Assembly (NCBI GenBank): GCA_949299115.1
Contig: CASFZH010000035.1
Span: forward strand, 1 to 27,380
Length of the DNA: 27,380 nucleotides
Reading direction: 5' to 3'
Source: an uncultured Helicobacter sp.
GTDB lineage: Bacteria > Campylobacterota > Campylobacteria > Campylobacterales > Helicobacteraceae
This document shows, piece after piece, positions 10,914-14,983 of the stretch (positions are counted from its first letter, which is position 1; every line of letters begins with the position of its first letter). Made by a program: the position numbers and the translations under genes. The notes below the pieces were generated by a model. That model was not told the origin of the DNA, searched no databases, and saw only the letters and a program-made list of their open reading frames with translations.

Positions 10914-12324
10914 ATGACAATCAAAGGCATGGAAAAACGATTGCGAGAAAGTTTTATGTATAAAAATATTTTTAGACCCATAAAGCTCAAGTTATGGCGA
11001 GAGCCTTATTATAAATTTATAAAAGATCCCTATAGAAAATATCGCGAATCACGTTATACTGATGAGGAATATTTTTTACGAAGACATAAGAATATTTTTG
11101 GCTACATACCAGACTTTAAAAACCCTCAAACTTTTAATGAAAAAATCGTGCATAGAATCCTTTATGATAGAAATCCTCTTTATACAGCACTCGCTGATAA
11201 ACTCAAAGCTAGAATCTACATCGCTGCAAAGTTACAAAGTTTCACTTTAGATAACGGGGGGGGGGGGTAACCCTTTAAAAAATATAAGTTCTCTTAGTAT
11301 AGATAACTCCTCAAAGAAATCCTCGTCCAATCTTAAAAAAAGCATATTCCAAAATACAAAACCCACTCAAGATTTTAGAGATTTTAAAACTACCACAGAC
11401 TTGAGTGTGCAAATAAAGCAAAAATTTCAAATCCTTGCCAATTCTCCAACATTTTTAGATTCTCATACGTCCTCTTCACCTTTGTTTGCTCCTATCGATA
11501 GCCTAACCCAGCTTCTCTTTGAGACCAATATTTGCCCTTTTTTACCCAAACTTTATGGTATTTATAAAAATGTAGAGGAGATAGATTTTACTGTTTTGCC
11601 ACAAAGCTTTGTGCTAAAGACTAACCATGATAGTGGAGGCGTGGTTATCGTGCCCGATAAAGAAGCATTTTTGGGAGATTCTAAAGTCTTTAATGAGGCT
11701 ATGGCAAAGCTCACCAAACATCTCAATACAAATTTTTATACGCTTTATAGAGAATACCACTACAAAGACATAGAACCCAGAATCTTTGCCGAAGAGCTGT
11801 TAGGGGAGCAAGTAGATGAGTTGAATTCACTGGCAAATGATTCTCACACCTCACAATCTCATTTGAATTTTAAAAAAAATGAAAATCATAATTTTCATAA
11901 TAAATTCGAAAGTTTTGCTCCAGCTGATACTTATAAATTCCATATTTTTGGCAATGATGATATACATAATTATATCCAAGTAACCACCGATAGATTTAAT
12001 GATTATCAACGCACGATTATGAATTGCTATTGGGAAAAAGCTCCTTTTGGGTTTATCTATGACAATAATAGAATTACAAAAATACCCAAAAAACCTAAAG
12101 AACTTACTTTGATGTACAAAATATCCCATTTTCTAGCCTCACCTTTTACCTATGTGCGAATAGATTTGTATGATGTGAATGATAGAATCTATGTAGGCGA
12201 ACTTACTTTCACACATGGTGGTGGCACAGAGACGCTCAATCCAAAAGAATGGGATAAGAAACTTGGCGGTTTGTGGAAAAATAAACAATCACAGGCTGTG
12301 CTACATACTACTACTTCACACTAA
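10914..12324 (+). CDS. TupA-like ATP-grasp amidoligase (PF14305-like), phase-variable and in the OFF frame in this sequence
   Basis: The 5' ORF (10914-11270, frame 3) carries FKNPQTFNEKIVHRILYDRNPLYTALADKLKARIYIAAKL. The 3' ORF is open from 11251 to 12324 in frame 1 and carries LPKLYGIYKNVEEIDFTVLPQSFVLKTNHDSGGVVIVPD...YVRIDLYDVNDRIYVGELTFTHGGGTETLNPKEWDKKLGGLW. These are the N- and C-terminal signatures of one TupA-like ATP-grasp domain. The two frames are joined only through the G12 tract, so G11 or G14 would give one product of about 470 aa. The 5' ORF has RBS GAGGAG. Confidence 0.65.
11256..11267 (+). repeat. Homopolymeric G12 tract inside the ATP-grasp gene (slipped-strand mispairing phase-variation switch)
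   Basis: ataacGGGGGGGGGGGGtaa read directly. The frame-3 ORF terminates at TAA immediately after the tract, and the frame-1 ORF is open through the tract. Confidence 0.9.
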
Positions 12325-12333
12325 GGAGATTCT

Positions 12334-13500
12334 ATGCCACACAACAAACAAATCATAGCAGATAAAATCACAACTTTAAAGAAAGCTGCGGGTAGTCATA
12401 GCCCTAGTATTTTTACGCTTATAGAAAGAATACCAGAGCTTACAATCGACATTGATGCGTGTTTCTTATCAAATCCGTATGCGACAAATCTTTTTATGCA
12501 ATATATGGATAGGGAACTTTTAAGCACTAAAAAATTGCGTAATGTTTTAGAATTTTATCCTTCGCAAAATGGCGTTATTGCTGATATATTGAGTAAATCC
12601 ATTAGCATTGATAAAGAATATATTTTTATTGGAAATGGTGCGGTAGAGGTTATCCAATCTGTATTGCATAATTTTGTAGAAGGTAAACTTGTGGTCAATA
12701 TCCCTACTTTTTCATCATATTATGAGTTTATTAATGATAAAACCCAAGTGGTCTTCTATAAAACCTCAAAGGATAATAATTATGCTATTAATAGAGAATC
12801 TTACATTGATTTTATTAAAGCCCAAAAGCCTCAAAGTGTGATTATCATTAATCCCAATAACCCGGATGGCAGTTACATACCATACAAAGATTTACATATA
12901 ATTATCCAAAGTTTACCTGAAGTAGAAAATATTATCATCGATGAAAGTTTTTTACATTTTGCTTATGAAAATAAGAATTATGATTTTATTTCATACAGCA
13001 GTCTTTTCAAGGAATTTTCTAATGTGATTTTGATAAAGAGTATGTCAAAAGATTTCGGTATAGCAGGTATTCGTGCAGGTTATGGGGTTATGGCAAAACA
13101 GAAAGTGGCAAAACTTCTCAAAAATGCTTATCTATGGAATTCAAATGGGCTTAGTGAGTATTTTTTTAGACTCTATGCTAGAGATGATTTTAAGCAAGAA
13201 TATGAATATATAAGAAAGATTTATATCAAACAAACTCAAGAATTTTTCTCAATGCTTACACAGATTCCATGTATCAAGGTTTATCCTAGCAAAGCAAACT
13301 TTGCTCTTATTGAGATTCTAAATGGTAGTAAAAATACTGATTTTGTGATGACAATGCTTCTTGAATATGGAATCTATACTCGTACTTGCAGCGATAAGAT
13401 AGGGTTAAATGGTGAATTTGTCCGTCTCGCTTCAAGAACAAAAGAAGAAAATGAAAAAGTTATCCAATCTTTACAAGATATATTTGGAAATCTGAAATAA
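12334..13500 (+). CDS. PLP-dependent class I/II aminotransferase-fold enzyme (HisC/CobD-like; aminotransferase or amino-acid-phosphate decarboxylase)
   Basis: 388 aa. The PLP-lysine motif SMSKDFGIAGIRAGYG matches the SxxK-FxxxGxRxGY motif of HisC/CobD. RBS AAGGAG lies upstream, and the start is 10 nt after the ATP-grasp stop, so the two genes are probably in one operon. Confidence 0.8.
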   Translation: MPHNKQIIADKITTLKKAAGSHSPSIFTLIERIPELTIDIDACFLSNPYATNLFMQYMDRELLSTKKLRNVLEFYPSQNGVIADILSKSISIDKEYIFIGNGAVEVIQSVLHNFVEGKLVVNIPTFSSYYEFINDKTQVVFYKTSKDNNYAINRESYIDFIKAQKPQSVIIINPNNPDGSYIPYKDLHIIIQSLPEVENIIIDESFLHFAYENKNYDFISYSSLFKEFSNVILIKSMSKDFGIAGIRAGYGVMAKQKVAKLLKNAYLWNSNGLSEYFFRLYARDDFKQEYEYIRKIYIKQTQEFFSMLTQIPCIKVYPSKANFALIEILNGSKNTDFVMTMLLEYGIYTRTCSDKIGLNGEFVRLASRTKEENEKVIQSLQDIFGNLK

Positions 13501-13628
13501 GAGTGTAAATAGTTTTAGGGATTGCATCTCTAGAATCTATGCGTAAATGGTATAGACAATAATCATTTATACATAAGTCTTTTATCATACTTAGTTGTAC
13601 TTTTGTATATTTCTATTAAGGAGTTATT

Positions 13629-13907
13629 GTGGCAACGACATTAATGCAAGTCAGACGTGATGAGAATCTAAAAAAAGAAACAGATATGCTTTTTAATGAA
13701 TTGTGGTTTGATACCACTACAGCAGTGAGAATATTTTTAAAAGCCACTATTAAAGAACAAGGTTTGCCCTTTAAGGTGCAAAGCAAAAAAGAGTATAAGC
13801 AAGAAAGAGGAGGCATTTTAAGCCCAGAGAATATCAAGATTCTCTTAGAGGATTACAAAAAGTTTGAAAGTCGTGAGGGTTTTGTAAAGGAACTCTTTGA
13901 TGAATAA
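13629..13907 (+). CDS. RelB/DinJ-family type II antitoxin
   Basis: GTG start with RBS AAGGAG 7 nt upstream. The 92-aa product VRRDENLKKETDMLFNELWFDTTTAVRIFLKATIKEQGLPF aligns with DinJ (VRIDEDLKNQAADVL...VRITLTKVAREKALPF). The stop overlaps the start of the toxin ORF (ATGAATAA). Confidence 0.75.
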   Translation: MATTLMQVRRDENLKKETDMLFNELWFDTTTAVRIFLKATIKEQGLPFKVQSKKEYKQERGGILSPENIKILLEDYKKFESREGFVKELFDE

Positions 13908-14148
13908 GGTATTTTGGGAGATAGCATGGGAACAATATTGCTATTGGCAGGAGTAATGATAAAAAATCCTTAAAAGAATTAATATGTTACTTAAAAATAT
14001 TGAGAAAAATGGCACATTACATGAAATAGGGAAACCAGAAGCACTAACAAGAAATTTAAACGGATTGTATTCAAGACGTATAAATAATGAGCATAGATTG
14101 ACAAATCTTTGTATCGTCGTTTGTAAAACGCACTATGGAGAAAAATAG
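13900..14148 (+). pseudogene. YoeB/Txe-family (RelE/ParE superfamily) toxin gene interrupted by three consecutive in-frame stop codons
   Basis: One frame reads MNKVFWEIAWEQYCYWQE-TAA-TGA-TAA-KILKRINMLLKNIEKNGTLHEIGKPEALTRNLNGLYSRRINNEHRLTNLCIVVCKTHYGEK. It aligns without gaps to E. coli YoeB (MKLIWSEESWDDYLYWQETDKRIVKKINELIKDTRRTPFEGKGKPEPLKHNLSGFWSRRITEEHRL...CRYHY), with the three stops (13954-13962) sitting exactly where T-D-K sits. Confidence 0.7.
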
Positions 14149-14332
14149 GTGGATTAATATGAGAATCTCAAGCACACGATACTACAAAATACATATACCT
14201 AGATTCTGTAGGGACGGTTACAGTGTGCACAAAGCAAAGATTGTTTTCCCCATAAGCAATAATGAGTTTTGTACACACTTGCGTAAGAATATGGATTCCA
14301 ATGGAATCTTAATTTTATTTTAAGGAGTAATA

Positions 14333-14983
14333 ATGCAAAAAATATTAGCTATTTTTGATTTTTGTGAGACATTGGTTTCCATTCAGAGTATTCCACCTTA
14401 TCTAAATATGGTAGCCACACATAATCCACATTATCATAAGCGACTTTTACGTTGGCAACACAAAATCCTCCCACGCCTCCACAGATGCACGAAACTACCA
14501 ATCTTTGCTTTTAAACCCGTGCGTTATCCACAACTAAAGGGTATGAGTGTAGAAAAAGCAGAGCAGTTAGCAAAAGAATATGTGCATAATGAGCTTTTAG
14601 ATAAAACTAATGCAAGAGTTATAGACAAATTAAAATTTCATCAAGAAAGTGGACACACCATAGTCATAGTTTCAGGTGGACTCGAAATATACATTAAAGA
14701 ATTTGCTAAAGCCTTTGGAATCAAGCATGTAGTAGCCATTAGTCTAGAATCTCATAATGGAATCTTGAGTGGCGAAATAGACGGTATACATACCATGGAG
14801 TATCGCAAGCTCTACAAACTCACACAAATGCTTGATATGAGTGAATTTGACCTAAAGGTTTCGTATGCGTATAGCGATTGTCCAAGTGATATACCGTTGC
14901 TTTGTTTTGTGGGTAATGGGGTGGCGATAGAATGTGGTAAAGATTTGCAATGGGCAAAGATTATGAGCTATGAGATATTATAA
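14333..14983 (+). CDS. HAD-superfamily subfamily IB phosphatase-like hydrolase (motif I reads DFCET instead of DFDGT)
   Basis: 216 aa; N-terminal AIFDFCETLV (HAD motif I), later TIVIVSGGLEIYIKEFA and a C-terminal acidic motif; RBS AAGGAG 5 nt upstream. Confidence 0.75.
   Translation: MQKILAIFDFCETLVSIQSIPPYLNMVATHNPHYHKRLLRWQHKILPRLHRCTKLPIFAFKPVRYPQLKGMSVEKAEQLAKEYVHNELLDKTNARVIDKLKFHQESGHTIVIVSGGLEIYIKEFAKAFGIKHVVAISLESHNGILSGEIDGIHTMEYRKLYKLTQMLDMSEFDLKVSYAYSDCPSDIPLLCFVGNGVAIECGKDLQWAKIMSYEIL

Follow-up and report, generated by a model that had tools for sequence, protein, structure and literature searches.

A predicted glycan amidation locus of enterohepatic Helicobacter with a G-tract and an amidoligase gene whose C-terminal half appears to be exchanged by DNA inversion

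We have analysed a stretch of 27,380 nucleotides from an uncultured Helicobacter sp. (contig CASFZH010000035.1 of assembly GCA_949299115.1), which is called the window throughout. It contains a gene for a TupA-like ATP-grasp amidoligase (10914-12324, plus strand), followed by the genes for a pyridoxal phosphate (PLP) enzyme (12334-13500, plus strand) and for a phosphatase of the haloacid dehalogenase (HAD) type (HAD-IB; 14333-14983, plus strand). We think it likely that these genes form an amidation locus of the ethanolamine branch, in which a tract of G residues switches the ligase and several cassettes of the ligase gene are exchanged by inversion. While the three enzymes add a further example to a pathway already known, the inversion system is new in its form among shufflons and gene-altering inversions; literature searches, including two systematic inverton surveys, found no description of such a Helicobacter amidoligase inversion system.

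An initial annotation of the window had placed three genes of the same direction at 10914-14983, right behind gmhA (8640-9263; TIGR00441, 230 bits) and manC (9418-10851; TIGR01479, 550 bits; directly upstream), and the profile matches confirm this. Judging by its sequence, the source organism belongs to the enterohepatic Helicobacter; the base composition of the window is ~31% G+C, and for AccC the identity is 92% with H. trogontum and 90% with H. muridarum.

Inversion of the ligase C-terminal half

In alignments of homologues, the N-terminal half of the ligase (N-half) is conserved up to the residues ...IEPRVFAEELL, after which come a variable linker and then a much more divergent C-terminal half (C-half). 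The constant N-half consists of the N-terminal domain and the conserved KTNHD...EELL region. In a structural model of the ligase (AlphaFold2, AF2) the linker is a disordered loop, with a predicted local distance difference test score (pLDDT) below 50. Here, at the end of the N-half and inside the coding sequence, in the codons for ENHNFH, lies a site that resembles difH, the target of the chromosomal recombinase XerH (TGAAAATCATAATTTTCA, 11880-11897). It is followed by a C-half cassette in the expressed slot (C1; 11898-12324, plus strand), which is of the type found in the Campylobacter jejuni protein Cj1438 and 59-60% identical to its C-half.

A second, silent C-half cassette (C2, of a type that we call type 1; 15631-16060, minus strand) is found downstream of the phosphatase gene, where the opposite strand encodes a TupA C-terminal fragment of 120 codons (15631-15993; PF14305, E = 2e-23). 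C2 is 48% identical to C1. Immediately upstream of C2 there is a right difH-like site (16061-16078), the reverse complement of the left one with the same TCATAA spacer, so that the two form part of an inverted repeat (11874-11900 and 16058-16084) that is perfect over 27 nt and extends over 39 nt at 90%. Both sites read ENHNFH in the same frame, and C2 is open from the repeat to its stop codon. The segment between the repeats (11874-16084, arms included) holds C1, the PLP gene, a RelB/YoeB pair with a defective YoeB, the HAD gene, the remnant of a small open reading frame (ORF) and C2. Recombination between the sites would flip this segment and fuse another C-half in frame to the constant N-half.

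Both arrangements that such a flip would connect are found in contigs that belong to the species of the window. Three ligase proteins (P0001, P0008 and P0009) are identical throughout the N-half, as far as ENHNFH, and continue with three different C-halves; their contigs are flanked as the window is, with accBC, gmhA and manC on one side and YtkA, MatE and DprA on the other. In one contig (L093) the same N-half is fused in frame at ENHNFH to the C-half of P0009, and the HAD gene, the defective YoeB gene, the RelB gene, the PLP gene and C1 all lie on the other strand. Positions 11874-16067 of the window correspond to L093 14661-10468 in inverted orientation with 99.7% identity; the flanks are collinear and both sites are the breakpoints. 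The same is seen for another contig, L003, of which positions 631-5829 match L093 14661-9454 inverted at 99.3%, again with collinear flanks. The flipped segment measures 4.2 kb in the window and 5.2 kb in strains with two silent cassettes. The latter include L001-L003, which hold a second silent cassette together with an ORF for a membrane protein of 77 amino acids (aa), both of which the window lacks. Relative to L003, the window has a deletion of 922 nt, with the crossover placed within ~11 nt at the right arm of the site.

A third type of strain (L091 and L092) has a new C-half after ENHNFH, followed 3 nt later by an amino-acid permease of the APC family, and has no PLP or HAD gene. In L091 (9324-10673) the whole block from C1 over the PLP gene and the toxin-antitoxin pair to the HAD gene is replaced by the different C-half, the permease and an ORF of 219 aa.

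The start of the PLP gene lies 10 nt past the ligase stop codon, and hence an inversion detaches the amine-supply genes from the ligase operon. The flip would turn the PLP and HAD genes away from this operon exactly as the Cj1438-like C-half leaves the expression site.

A second species allowed us to look at the exchange at higher resolution. Two of its loci, L004 and L008, lie between rpoN and frdB and are ~99.97% identical (99.96-99.98%) outside the locus. Within it, three cassettes are cyclically permuted among three slots, which corresponds to two nested inversions and replaces the product P0004 by P0006. Single-nucleotide differences located 7 and 10 nt downstream of the core of the site travel with the cassette, and the bases directly upstream stay with the slot. 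The crossover is thereby confined to ~24 nt for the exchanges that involve slot 2, and only to ~50 nt for the exchange between slots 1 and 3. The repeats in L004 are 57-114 nt long, 114 nt being the homology between two of its site copies.

Each of the two arrangements is repeated in an independent sample (L006 is arranged as L004, and L009 as L008), and homologous cassettes occupy different slots in two cultured isolates, H. equorum and Helicobacter sp. TUL. Potentially, the rearrangements could be assembly artefacts. This is argued against by the exact stretches shared at the junctions, which are shorter than 55 nt, by the recurrence of each L004/L008 arrangement in independent samples and by the different slots of the same cassettes in the cultured isolates. 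The comparison is one between assemblies from different samples and not within one clone, which weakens the case for inversion to some extent. From these sequence comparisons we hold the inversions to be very probably real.

The recombination site and a candidate recombinase

The core TGAAAA-N6-TTTTCA occurs exactly twice in the window, where 0.03 occurrences are expected. In 682 kb of Helicobacter and Campylobacter loci, a looser dyad (GAAAA-N6-8-TTTTC) was found 52 times, and 41 of these occurrences lie 30-160 nt upstream of a cassette. Nearly no locus with a single cassette has the exact 18-nt site. Within a locus the 6-nt spacer is almost always constant, but from species to species it changes (TCATAA, TGGTAA, GAGCGA, TRACGA); the proximal silent site of the window species has a spacer of its own (GCGCGA, GAGCGA or GGGCGA).

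Compared with the core of the epsilonproteobacterial difH consensus (TGAAAACTATAATTTTCA), the site of the window matches at 16 of the 18 positions. The difH consensus (...ATTGAAAACTATAATTTTCAAAC...) has palindromic arms around a 6-bp central region (PMC3325230), and XerH recognises the five innermost base pairs of each arm by their sequence (PMC5241119). XerH also recombines pairs of difH sites at ectopic loci. Given the arm cores of difH, the 6-bp spacer and the missing linked recombinase, XerH is the simplest candidate. More generally, the recombinase is presumably a tyrosine recombinase, most simply the one that acts at the chromosomal dif site.

Several observations speak against this assignment, or against a simple version of it. 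Mutation of the C at position 23 of difH strongly reduces recombination by XerH, and the cassette sites have a T or a G there instead of the conserved C. Their outer flanks are unrelated to the outer arms of difH (TTTTGTAT... and ...AAACTTTT), and in the H. canis group the sequence at the silent slots is TGCAAA. Recombination by XerH at difH needs FtsK. Against the inversion system as a whole it may be held that, in two species, no member of a recombinase family was found among the genes called up to 9-10 kb to the left and right of the locus; xerH itself lies outside the window. Moreover, the proximal and the distal silent site of L003 differ in their spacers, which makes the 922-nt deletion a poor fit with a simple two-strand exchange. 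That XerH is the recombinase is therefore a tentative proposal, to which we give somewhat less than an even chance.

On the other hand, one could propose that no dedicated recombinase is involved and that ordinary RecA-dependent recombination acts between short repeats derived from duplications, the dyad being a by-product of conserved coding for ENxNFH. The lack of a recombinase gene beside the locus, the extension of the L004 repeats to 57-114 nt, the C missing at position 23, the different outer arms and the joining of sites with different spacers in the 922-nt deletion would all suit this explanation. It accounts less well for the positions of the crossovers. Six of them (three between L004 and L008, two between L003 and L093 and the one of the deletion) fall into dyad-containing intervals of at most 27 nt, or ~50 nt in the case of slots 1 and 3, and they are confined in this way although the homology reaches 114 nt. 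In the window species the perfect repeat is just 27 nt long (39 nt at 90%). The arms TGAAAA and TTTTCA are kept in at least 10 species, although the linker around them is poorly conserved, and the spacer varies between species while being nearly always uniform within a locus. We consider RecA-dependent exchange unlikely, and the confinement of the crossovers and the conservation of the arms make a site-specific mechanism a probable alternative to homologous recombination.

If XerH runs the system, a housekeeping function, the resolution of chromosome dimers, doubles as an engine of phase variation. The most far-reaching form of this proposal is that the enterohepatic Helicobacter have co-opted dif/XerH, with difH-like sites inside a coding linker, for a shufflon of amidoligase C-halves, which in some species also moves the genes that would supply the matching amine (those for the decarboxylase and the phosphatase, or for the amino-acid permease), and that this shufflon and a poly-G switch make up a generator with two layers; it would allow combinatorial amide decorations of the surface glycan. 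We regard it as possible but as less probable again than the role of XerH by itself.

Enzyme identities and predicted chemistry

The sequences of Cj1438C (the C-terminal domain of Cj1438) and Cj1435 used as references were taken from the supplement of PMC11800397, and P0044 was checked as identical to the published Cj1438C; for the PLP genes we used the C. jejuni HS:2-type locus L090. The ligase matches PF14305 with 121.5 bits (cutoff 25, E = 5e-35). It is 53% identical to the C-terminal domain of Cj1438 over residues 525-770, the catalytic core, and 58% identical over residues 456-514, the N-terminal segment, which bears out the initial classification of the ATP-grasp enzyme as TupA-like. In the window the gene is split in two by a G-tract (see below). 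Since both pieces align to one continuous stretch of Cj1438, within its C-terminal domain, they belong to one gene. Thus, the initial description of the ligase as one ORF is right as far as homology goes, but the gene is out of frame (OFF) at this tract.

The AF2 model of the ligase has a pLDDT of 74. A Foldseek search with it gave D-Ala-D-Ala ligase, RimK and LysX as the best matches, with a probability of ~1 and template modelling scores of only 0.22-0.25, probably because the model places the two halves in a wrong orientation to each other across the disordered linker. The fold search backs just a generic ATP-grasp fold. A sequence search of the ligase against PDB chains gave no match.

The PLP enzyme belongs to class I/II, as initially annotated (PF00155, E = 3e-32). 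It is 61% identical to Cj1436 over its full length and 24% identical to Cj1437, and for this reason the predicted amine is ethanolamine-phosphate; we take the gene to be the Cj1436 orthologue and a predicted L-serine-phosphate decarboxylase. The members of its sequence cluster bear the name L-serine phosphate decarboxylase. In the PDB it has a full-length match to 6OUX (E = 5e-111), including the lysine region SxSKDFGIAG, where SMSKDFGIAGIR of the window enzyme aligns with SLSKDFGIAGVR. The molecule in 6OUX is named 'threonine phosphate decarboxylase-like enzyme', just as SMUL_1544 of Sulfurospirillum multivorans is annotated, and by this identical name 6OUX is probably SMUL_1544. SMUL_1544 is reportedly an L-serine-O-phosphate decarboxylase that makes ethanolamine-phosphate.

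The initial annotation had named a HisC or CobD identity as one of the findings that would refute its proposal; the PLP enzyme would then act in histidine or cobamide synthesis and its place beside the ligase would be coincidental. CobD (TIGR01140) and HisC (TIGR01141) are indeed the best NCBIfam models for this protein, and 6OUX carries the name that Sulfurospirillum papers give to SMUL_1544, a gene sited in a cobamide operon. But the equivalog scores for HisC and CobD (148 vs 277 and 152 vs 291) are only about half of the curated cutoffs, and we rejected the assignment on this ground. Against it stand also the 61% full-length identity to Cj1436, the absence of cob, cbi or his genes within 27 kb, the coupling of the gene 10 nt behind the ligase and its recurrence with Cj1435-like HAD genes in other species. 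We consider this explanation very improbable.

The third enzyme, likewise in agreement with the initial annotation, is a HAD phosphatase (TIGR01490, 151.7 bits vs a cutoff of 98.3). Its full-length identity to Cj1435, of which we regard it as the orthologue, is 50% (E = 4e-73), and the motif FDFCETL is common to both. We are nearly certain that the three enzymes are orthologous to the glucuronamide enzymes of C. jejuni.

In C. jejuni NCTC 11168, Cj1437 transaminates dihydroxyacetone phosphate to (S)-serinol-phosphate, Cj1436 decarboxylates L-serine-phosphate to ethanolamine-phosphate, the C-terminal domain of Cj1438 forms an ATP-dependent amide with the C6 carboxylate of a glucuronic acid (GlcA) that is already in the chain, and Cj1435, which is specific for phosphorylated GlcA amides, removes the phosphate (PMC11800397). 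The initial annotation had described this pathway correctly. It had seen in the window the set of enzymes that C. jejuni uses for serinol or ethanolamine amides; homologues of Cj1438C, Cj1436 and Cj1435 are present, but there is no Cj1437, so that only the ethanolamine branch remains. By identity to the assayed C. jejuni enzymes (50-61%), the PLP enzyme would convert L-serine-phosphate to ethanolamine-phosphate, the ligase would use ATP to join it to the carboxylate of a uronic acid in a pre-built surface glycan, and the HAD enzyme would strip the phosphate and leave an ethanolamine amide on the glycan.

The chemistry is predicted from homology, and what counts against it is the context, as we found no ugd, glycosyltransferase or kps genes in the window. 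Potentially, the ligase could use ethanolamine-phosphate on something other than a surface-glycan uronate, for example a protein carboxylate or a small metabolite. Members of the TupA-like family have diverse functions, Klebsiella CfmP acting on a fimbrial protein independently of surface polysaccharides (PMC13419641), and gmhA and manC are the only glycan-synthesis genes that adjoin the three genes. Yet the ligase resembles Cj1438C, which uses a GlcA-containing glycan, with 53% identity in the core and 59-60% in the C-half; the phosphatase is of the Cj1435 type with its specificity for phosphorylated GlcA amides; and uronate-rich glycans are known in enterohepatic Helicobacter, namely the H. 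pullorum N-glycan HexNAc-HexNAcAN-HexNAcA-HexNAcA-HexNAc (PMC6025236). We take this last glycan as a lead toward the acceptor only. While a substrate of another kind seems improbable to us, we expect from the homology that the locus probably makes ethanolamine uronamides on acidic surface sugars. This would extend the glucuronamide chemistry of Campylobacter to the enterohepatic Helicobacter, of which the surface glycans are little known, with ethanolamine uronamide as the predicted product.

The G-tract in the ligase gene

The first variable linker of the ligase gene contains a tract of twelve Gs (11256-11267, plus strand). It splits the gene into an ORF of 118 codons (10914-11270) and a +1 frame that is open to 12324; with one G removed, a single protein of 469 aa results. 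From the reading frames, lengths of G11 and G14 are ON, whereas G12 and G13 are OFF. Intact homologues of the ligase encode GGGG at the position of the tract. In seven contigs of the same species (the window and six others, 99.1-99.8% identical) the tract is G12 in four cases and G13 in three, all of them OFF, homopolymer assembly errors being a caveat for these counts. At the same position, ~300-350 nt from the start of the gene, more than 20 Helicobacter loci or species have a tract of G9-G15. The tract thus fits a conserved contingency locus, and slipped-strand changes in its length would set the ligase ON or OFF.

That the ligase is OFF in all seven contigs is a point against this proposal, as the protein may rarely be made. 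One may even ask whether the cluster is a decaying relic that no longer modifies any glycan. Besides the seven out-of-frame ligase genes, there are three stop codons in the YoeB gene, a split PLP gene in L002, a cassette in fragments in L001 and L002, and the loss of one cassette unit from the window. However, two thirds of the possible tract lengths are OFF, so that seven OFF cases out of seven have a chance of ~6% if the length is random (our own calculation), and the length does vary between samples. If the tract is set aside, the N-half, both C-halves, the PLP gene (split only in L002), the HAD gene and the RelB gene are intact and 99-100% conserved, and the position of the tract is kept across species, as expected of a contingency locus. 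We find decay an improbable explanation and keep to the reading of the tract as a switch.

Other long homopolymers (G17-G19 and C9-C11) were seen in or beside Cj1437-like PLP genes of Campylobacter and Helicobacter loci (L024 5509-5527, L029 5700-5716, L010 13983-13993 and L013 14779-14787). It appears that the serinol branch has a phase switch of its own.

Distribution in other species

Species-representative genomes were scanned with an amidoligase alignment and screened by tblastn, which covered 80 loci. Adjacent genes for the amidoligase, a PLP enzyme and a HAD phosphatase were found in Helicobacter sp. TUL, H. equorum, Helicobacter sp. CLO-3, H. bilis, H. labetoulli and in Campylobacter capsule loci. 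TUL and H. equorum have both a Cj1436-like (60-61%) and a Cj1437-like PLP gene next to the HAD gene; in CLO-3, H. bilis and H. labetoulli the HAD gene stands with a Cj1437-like PLP gene. The ligase alone is found in many species, including H. canis, H. zhangjianzhongii, H. trogontum, H. pullorum, H. cinaedi, H. japonicus and H. saguini. Co-conservation of the three genes, on which the initial annotation had made its proposal depend, is therefore seen, as they are adjacent again in at least five other Helicobacter species.

The surroundings are not conserved in the same way. In other species, none of gmhA, manC, YtkA, MatE and DprA flanks an amidoligase, and the RelB/YoeB pair recurs only in L011. 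Since the flanks are not syntenic, the locus is not a conserved island at a fixed site. The initial annotation had spoken of an accessory island; the locus is indeed variable between strains, but it is an invertible cassette array rather than an island at a fixed site.

What is exchanged here by a natural process is the C-terminal half of an enzyme, and not the tip of an adhesin or the specificity subunit of a restriction-modification system, and this is the case in at least 10 Helicobacter species.

Short-read assemblies fall apart at such loci (H. bilis and H. labetoulli), which annotation pipelines report as fragments or pseudogenes. In H. labetoulli (L036, L041, L044 and L052) and H. bilis ATCC 51630 (L022, L027 and L040), contigs from short reads break at the junction between N-half and C-half. 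In H. labetoulli a contig of 961 nt with the N-half has about twice the coverage of others (610x vs 285-360x), and several contigs start with different C-halves; this suggests several ligase genes with a common N-half sequence, or a mixed population that the assembly did not resolve. TupA-like ligases of lower identity (29-37%; L045-L089) are numerous in gut taxa, among them Collinsella, Clostridia and Muribaculaceae.

What the C-terminal half may determine

We clustered 58 C-halves and found recurrent types that are common to several species. The commonest is type 1, to which C2 belongs, and it is the sole C-half in the genes of H. pullorum, H. cinaedi, H. bilis, H. trogontum and H. japonicus. 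Cassettes that resemble the C-half of Cj1438 are C1 of the window (59-60%), the CLO-3 cassette (57-58%) and a type shared by H. equorum, TUL, H. bilis and H. labetoulli (50-54%). In every fetched locus but L091, cassettes with at least 50% identity to the Cj1438 C-half adjoin a Cj1435-like HAD gene and a Cj1436- or Cj1437-like PLP gene. In the flanks of the fetched loci without a Cj1438-like cassette, we found no such PLP or HAD genes.

The pairing of cassette type with PLP and HAD genes, together with the variant that is linked to a permease, suggests that the C-half sets specificity. The cassette of L091 weighs against this, as it is 50% identical to the Cj1438 C-half and yet has no PLP or HAD gene. 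We lean slightly towards the view that the C-half determines the specificity for the amine, the acceptor or both. The link between C-half type and amine-supply genes is a handle on substrate choice in the large and mostly uncharacterised family of TupA-like amidoligases.

Other features of the window

Between the PLP and the HAD gene there is the remnant of a toxin-antitoxin system, which the initial annotation does not contain. It consists of an intact antitoxin gene of the RelB/DinJ family (13629-13907, plus strand; TIGR02384, 58 bits vs a cutoff of 45.65; PF04221) and a YoeB toxin pseudogene (13897-14148, plus strand; PF06769, E = 6e-11 on the distal 54 aa), which is of full length except for the stop codons TAA TGA TAA in frame at codons 19-21. 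A RelB/YoeB pair also lies within the cassette array of the other Helicobacter mentioned above (L011 11419-11956).

Downstream of the HAD gene there is a shortened copy of a gene for a small protein with two transmembrane segments (15342-15488, plus strand), an ORF of 48 aa that resembles ORFs of 75-77 aa in L004, L008 and L003. The gene for this protein (MAKIDELKE...) recurs in the arrays of different species and inverts with them (for example, L004 10268-10495 and L003 5018-5251). The 75-77-aa membrane ORFs gave no family match.

Two flanking ORFs had received names in the initial annotation: the 'hcp-like' one (7486-8067) has no Pfam match, and the 'crdA-like' one (17083-17457) is YtkA-like (PF13115). 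A scan for promoters and terminators in 10700-17200 did no better than on shuffled sequences, so that the operon structure rests on gene spacing only.

The window has a second G12 tract (25283-25294). It is intergenic, ~240 nt upstream of an SPFH/Band-7 gene (25532-26926) and also past the 5' end of a TelA-like gene that runs the other way (23748-24881, minus strand), and it may be a phase-variable element at the promoter level. A gene for a methyltransferase of the FkbM family (1388-2416, minus strand) is broken into several frames, and upstream of it lies a poly-C tract, which is C8 in the window, C14 in L001 and C12 at the start of L093. Next to this tract, 163 nt (2246-2408) are swapped for 79 unrelated nt in L001. 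This gene with its poly-C tract is probably another contingency locus.

Comparison with known systems

The closest relative of the enzymes is the HS:2 capsule pathway of C. jejuni, in which ligase, PLP enzyme and HAD follow each other as they do in the window (identities of 53-58%, 61% for Cj1436 and 50%). Nor does the predicted chemistry differ, leading from an amine-phosphate over an ATP-dependent uronate amide to dephosphorylation, and poly-G control is common to both, the Cj1437-like genes of Campylobacter carrying G17-G19. On the other hand, the ligase of the window stands alone, whereas the corresponding domain of the 776-aa Cj1438 is fused to GT2/DUF8374 domains; the window lacks Cj1437, and with it the serinol branch, as well as the context of kps, ugd and glycosyltransferase genes; and in the window the G-tract lies in the ligase gene itself, of which the C-half is exchangeable by DNA inversion. 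The SMUL_1544 gene (6OUX by its name) differs in context, as its cobamide operon (cbiB, cobU and others) feeds norcobamide, while the PLP gene of the window stands beside a glycan amidoligase.

With the resolution of dimers by XerH at difH, the system shares the architecture of the site, TGAAAA-6 bp-TTTTCA. In contrast to difH, there are several sites per locus, they are inverted and intragenic, and the outcome is inversion and not resolution.

The Xer-like inversions of Mollicutes (vpma and vsa of Mycoplasma, mba of Ureaplasma) are similar in that DNA inversion at short specific sites, in which recombinases of the Xer family are implicated, yields chimeric or alternative surface-related genes (PMC11868660, PMC3047005). 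They switch lipoprotein antigens or promoters, and the recombinase is usually linked to the locus, whereas here an enzyme domain and a biosynthetic operon are affected. The inversion loci of hsdS (ivr/SpnD39III of S. pneumoniae, and Mycoplasma pulmonis) exchange halves of specificity genes at short inverted repeats, with silent partial genes nearby (PMC4948785, PMC9881135); they concern a different protein family, and their output is methylation specificity where that of the window would be glycan chemistry. The systematic inversion survey among these sources makes no mention of Helicobacter, TupA/amidoligase or Xer (PMC9881135).

The best-known design of this kind, in the sense of the definition of a shufflon (PMC11868660), is that of plasmid R64. 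Like R64, the locus has several invertible segments bounded by repeats, with alternative C-terminal coding parts and exchange in frame. In the R64 shufflon, invertible segments bounded by repeats place alternative C-termini of PilV behind a constant N-terminal part in frame, and no information is lost. Here too, a constant N-terminal part with exchangeable C-terminal segments is present and both orientations are seen in nature (between samples), while a linked recombinase is missing. R64 has the adjacent tyrosine recombinase Rci and 19-bp sfx sites and varies the tip of an adhesin; the locus described here, with a difH-like site in place of sfx and no linked recombinase, swaps the C-half of an enzyme and carries substrate-supply genes along with it.

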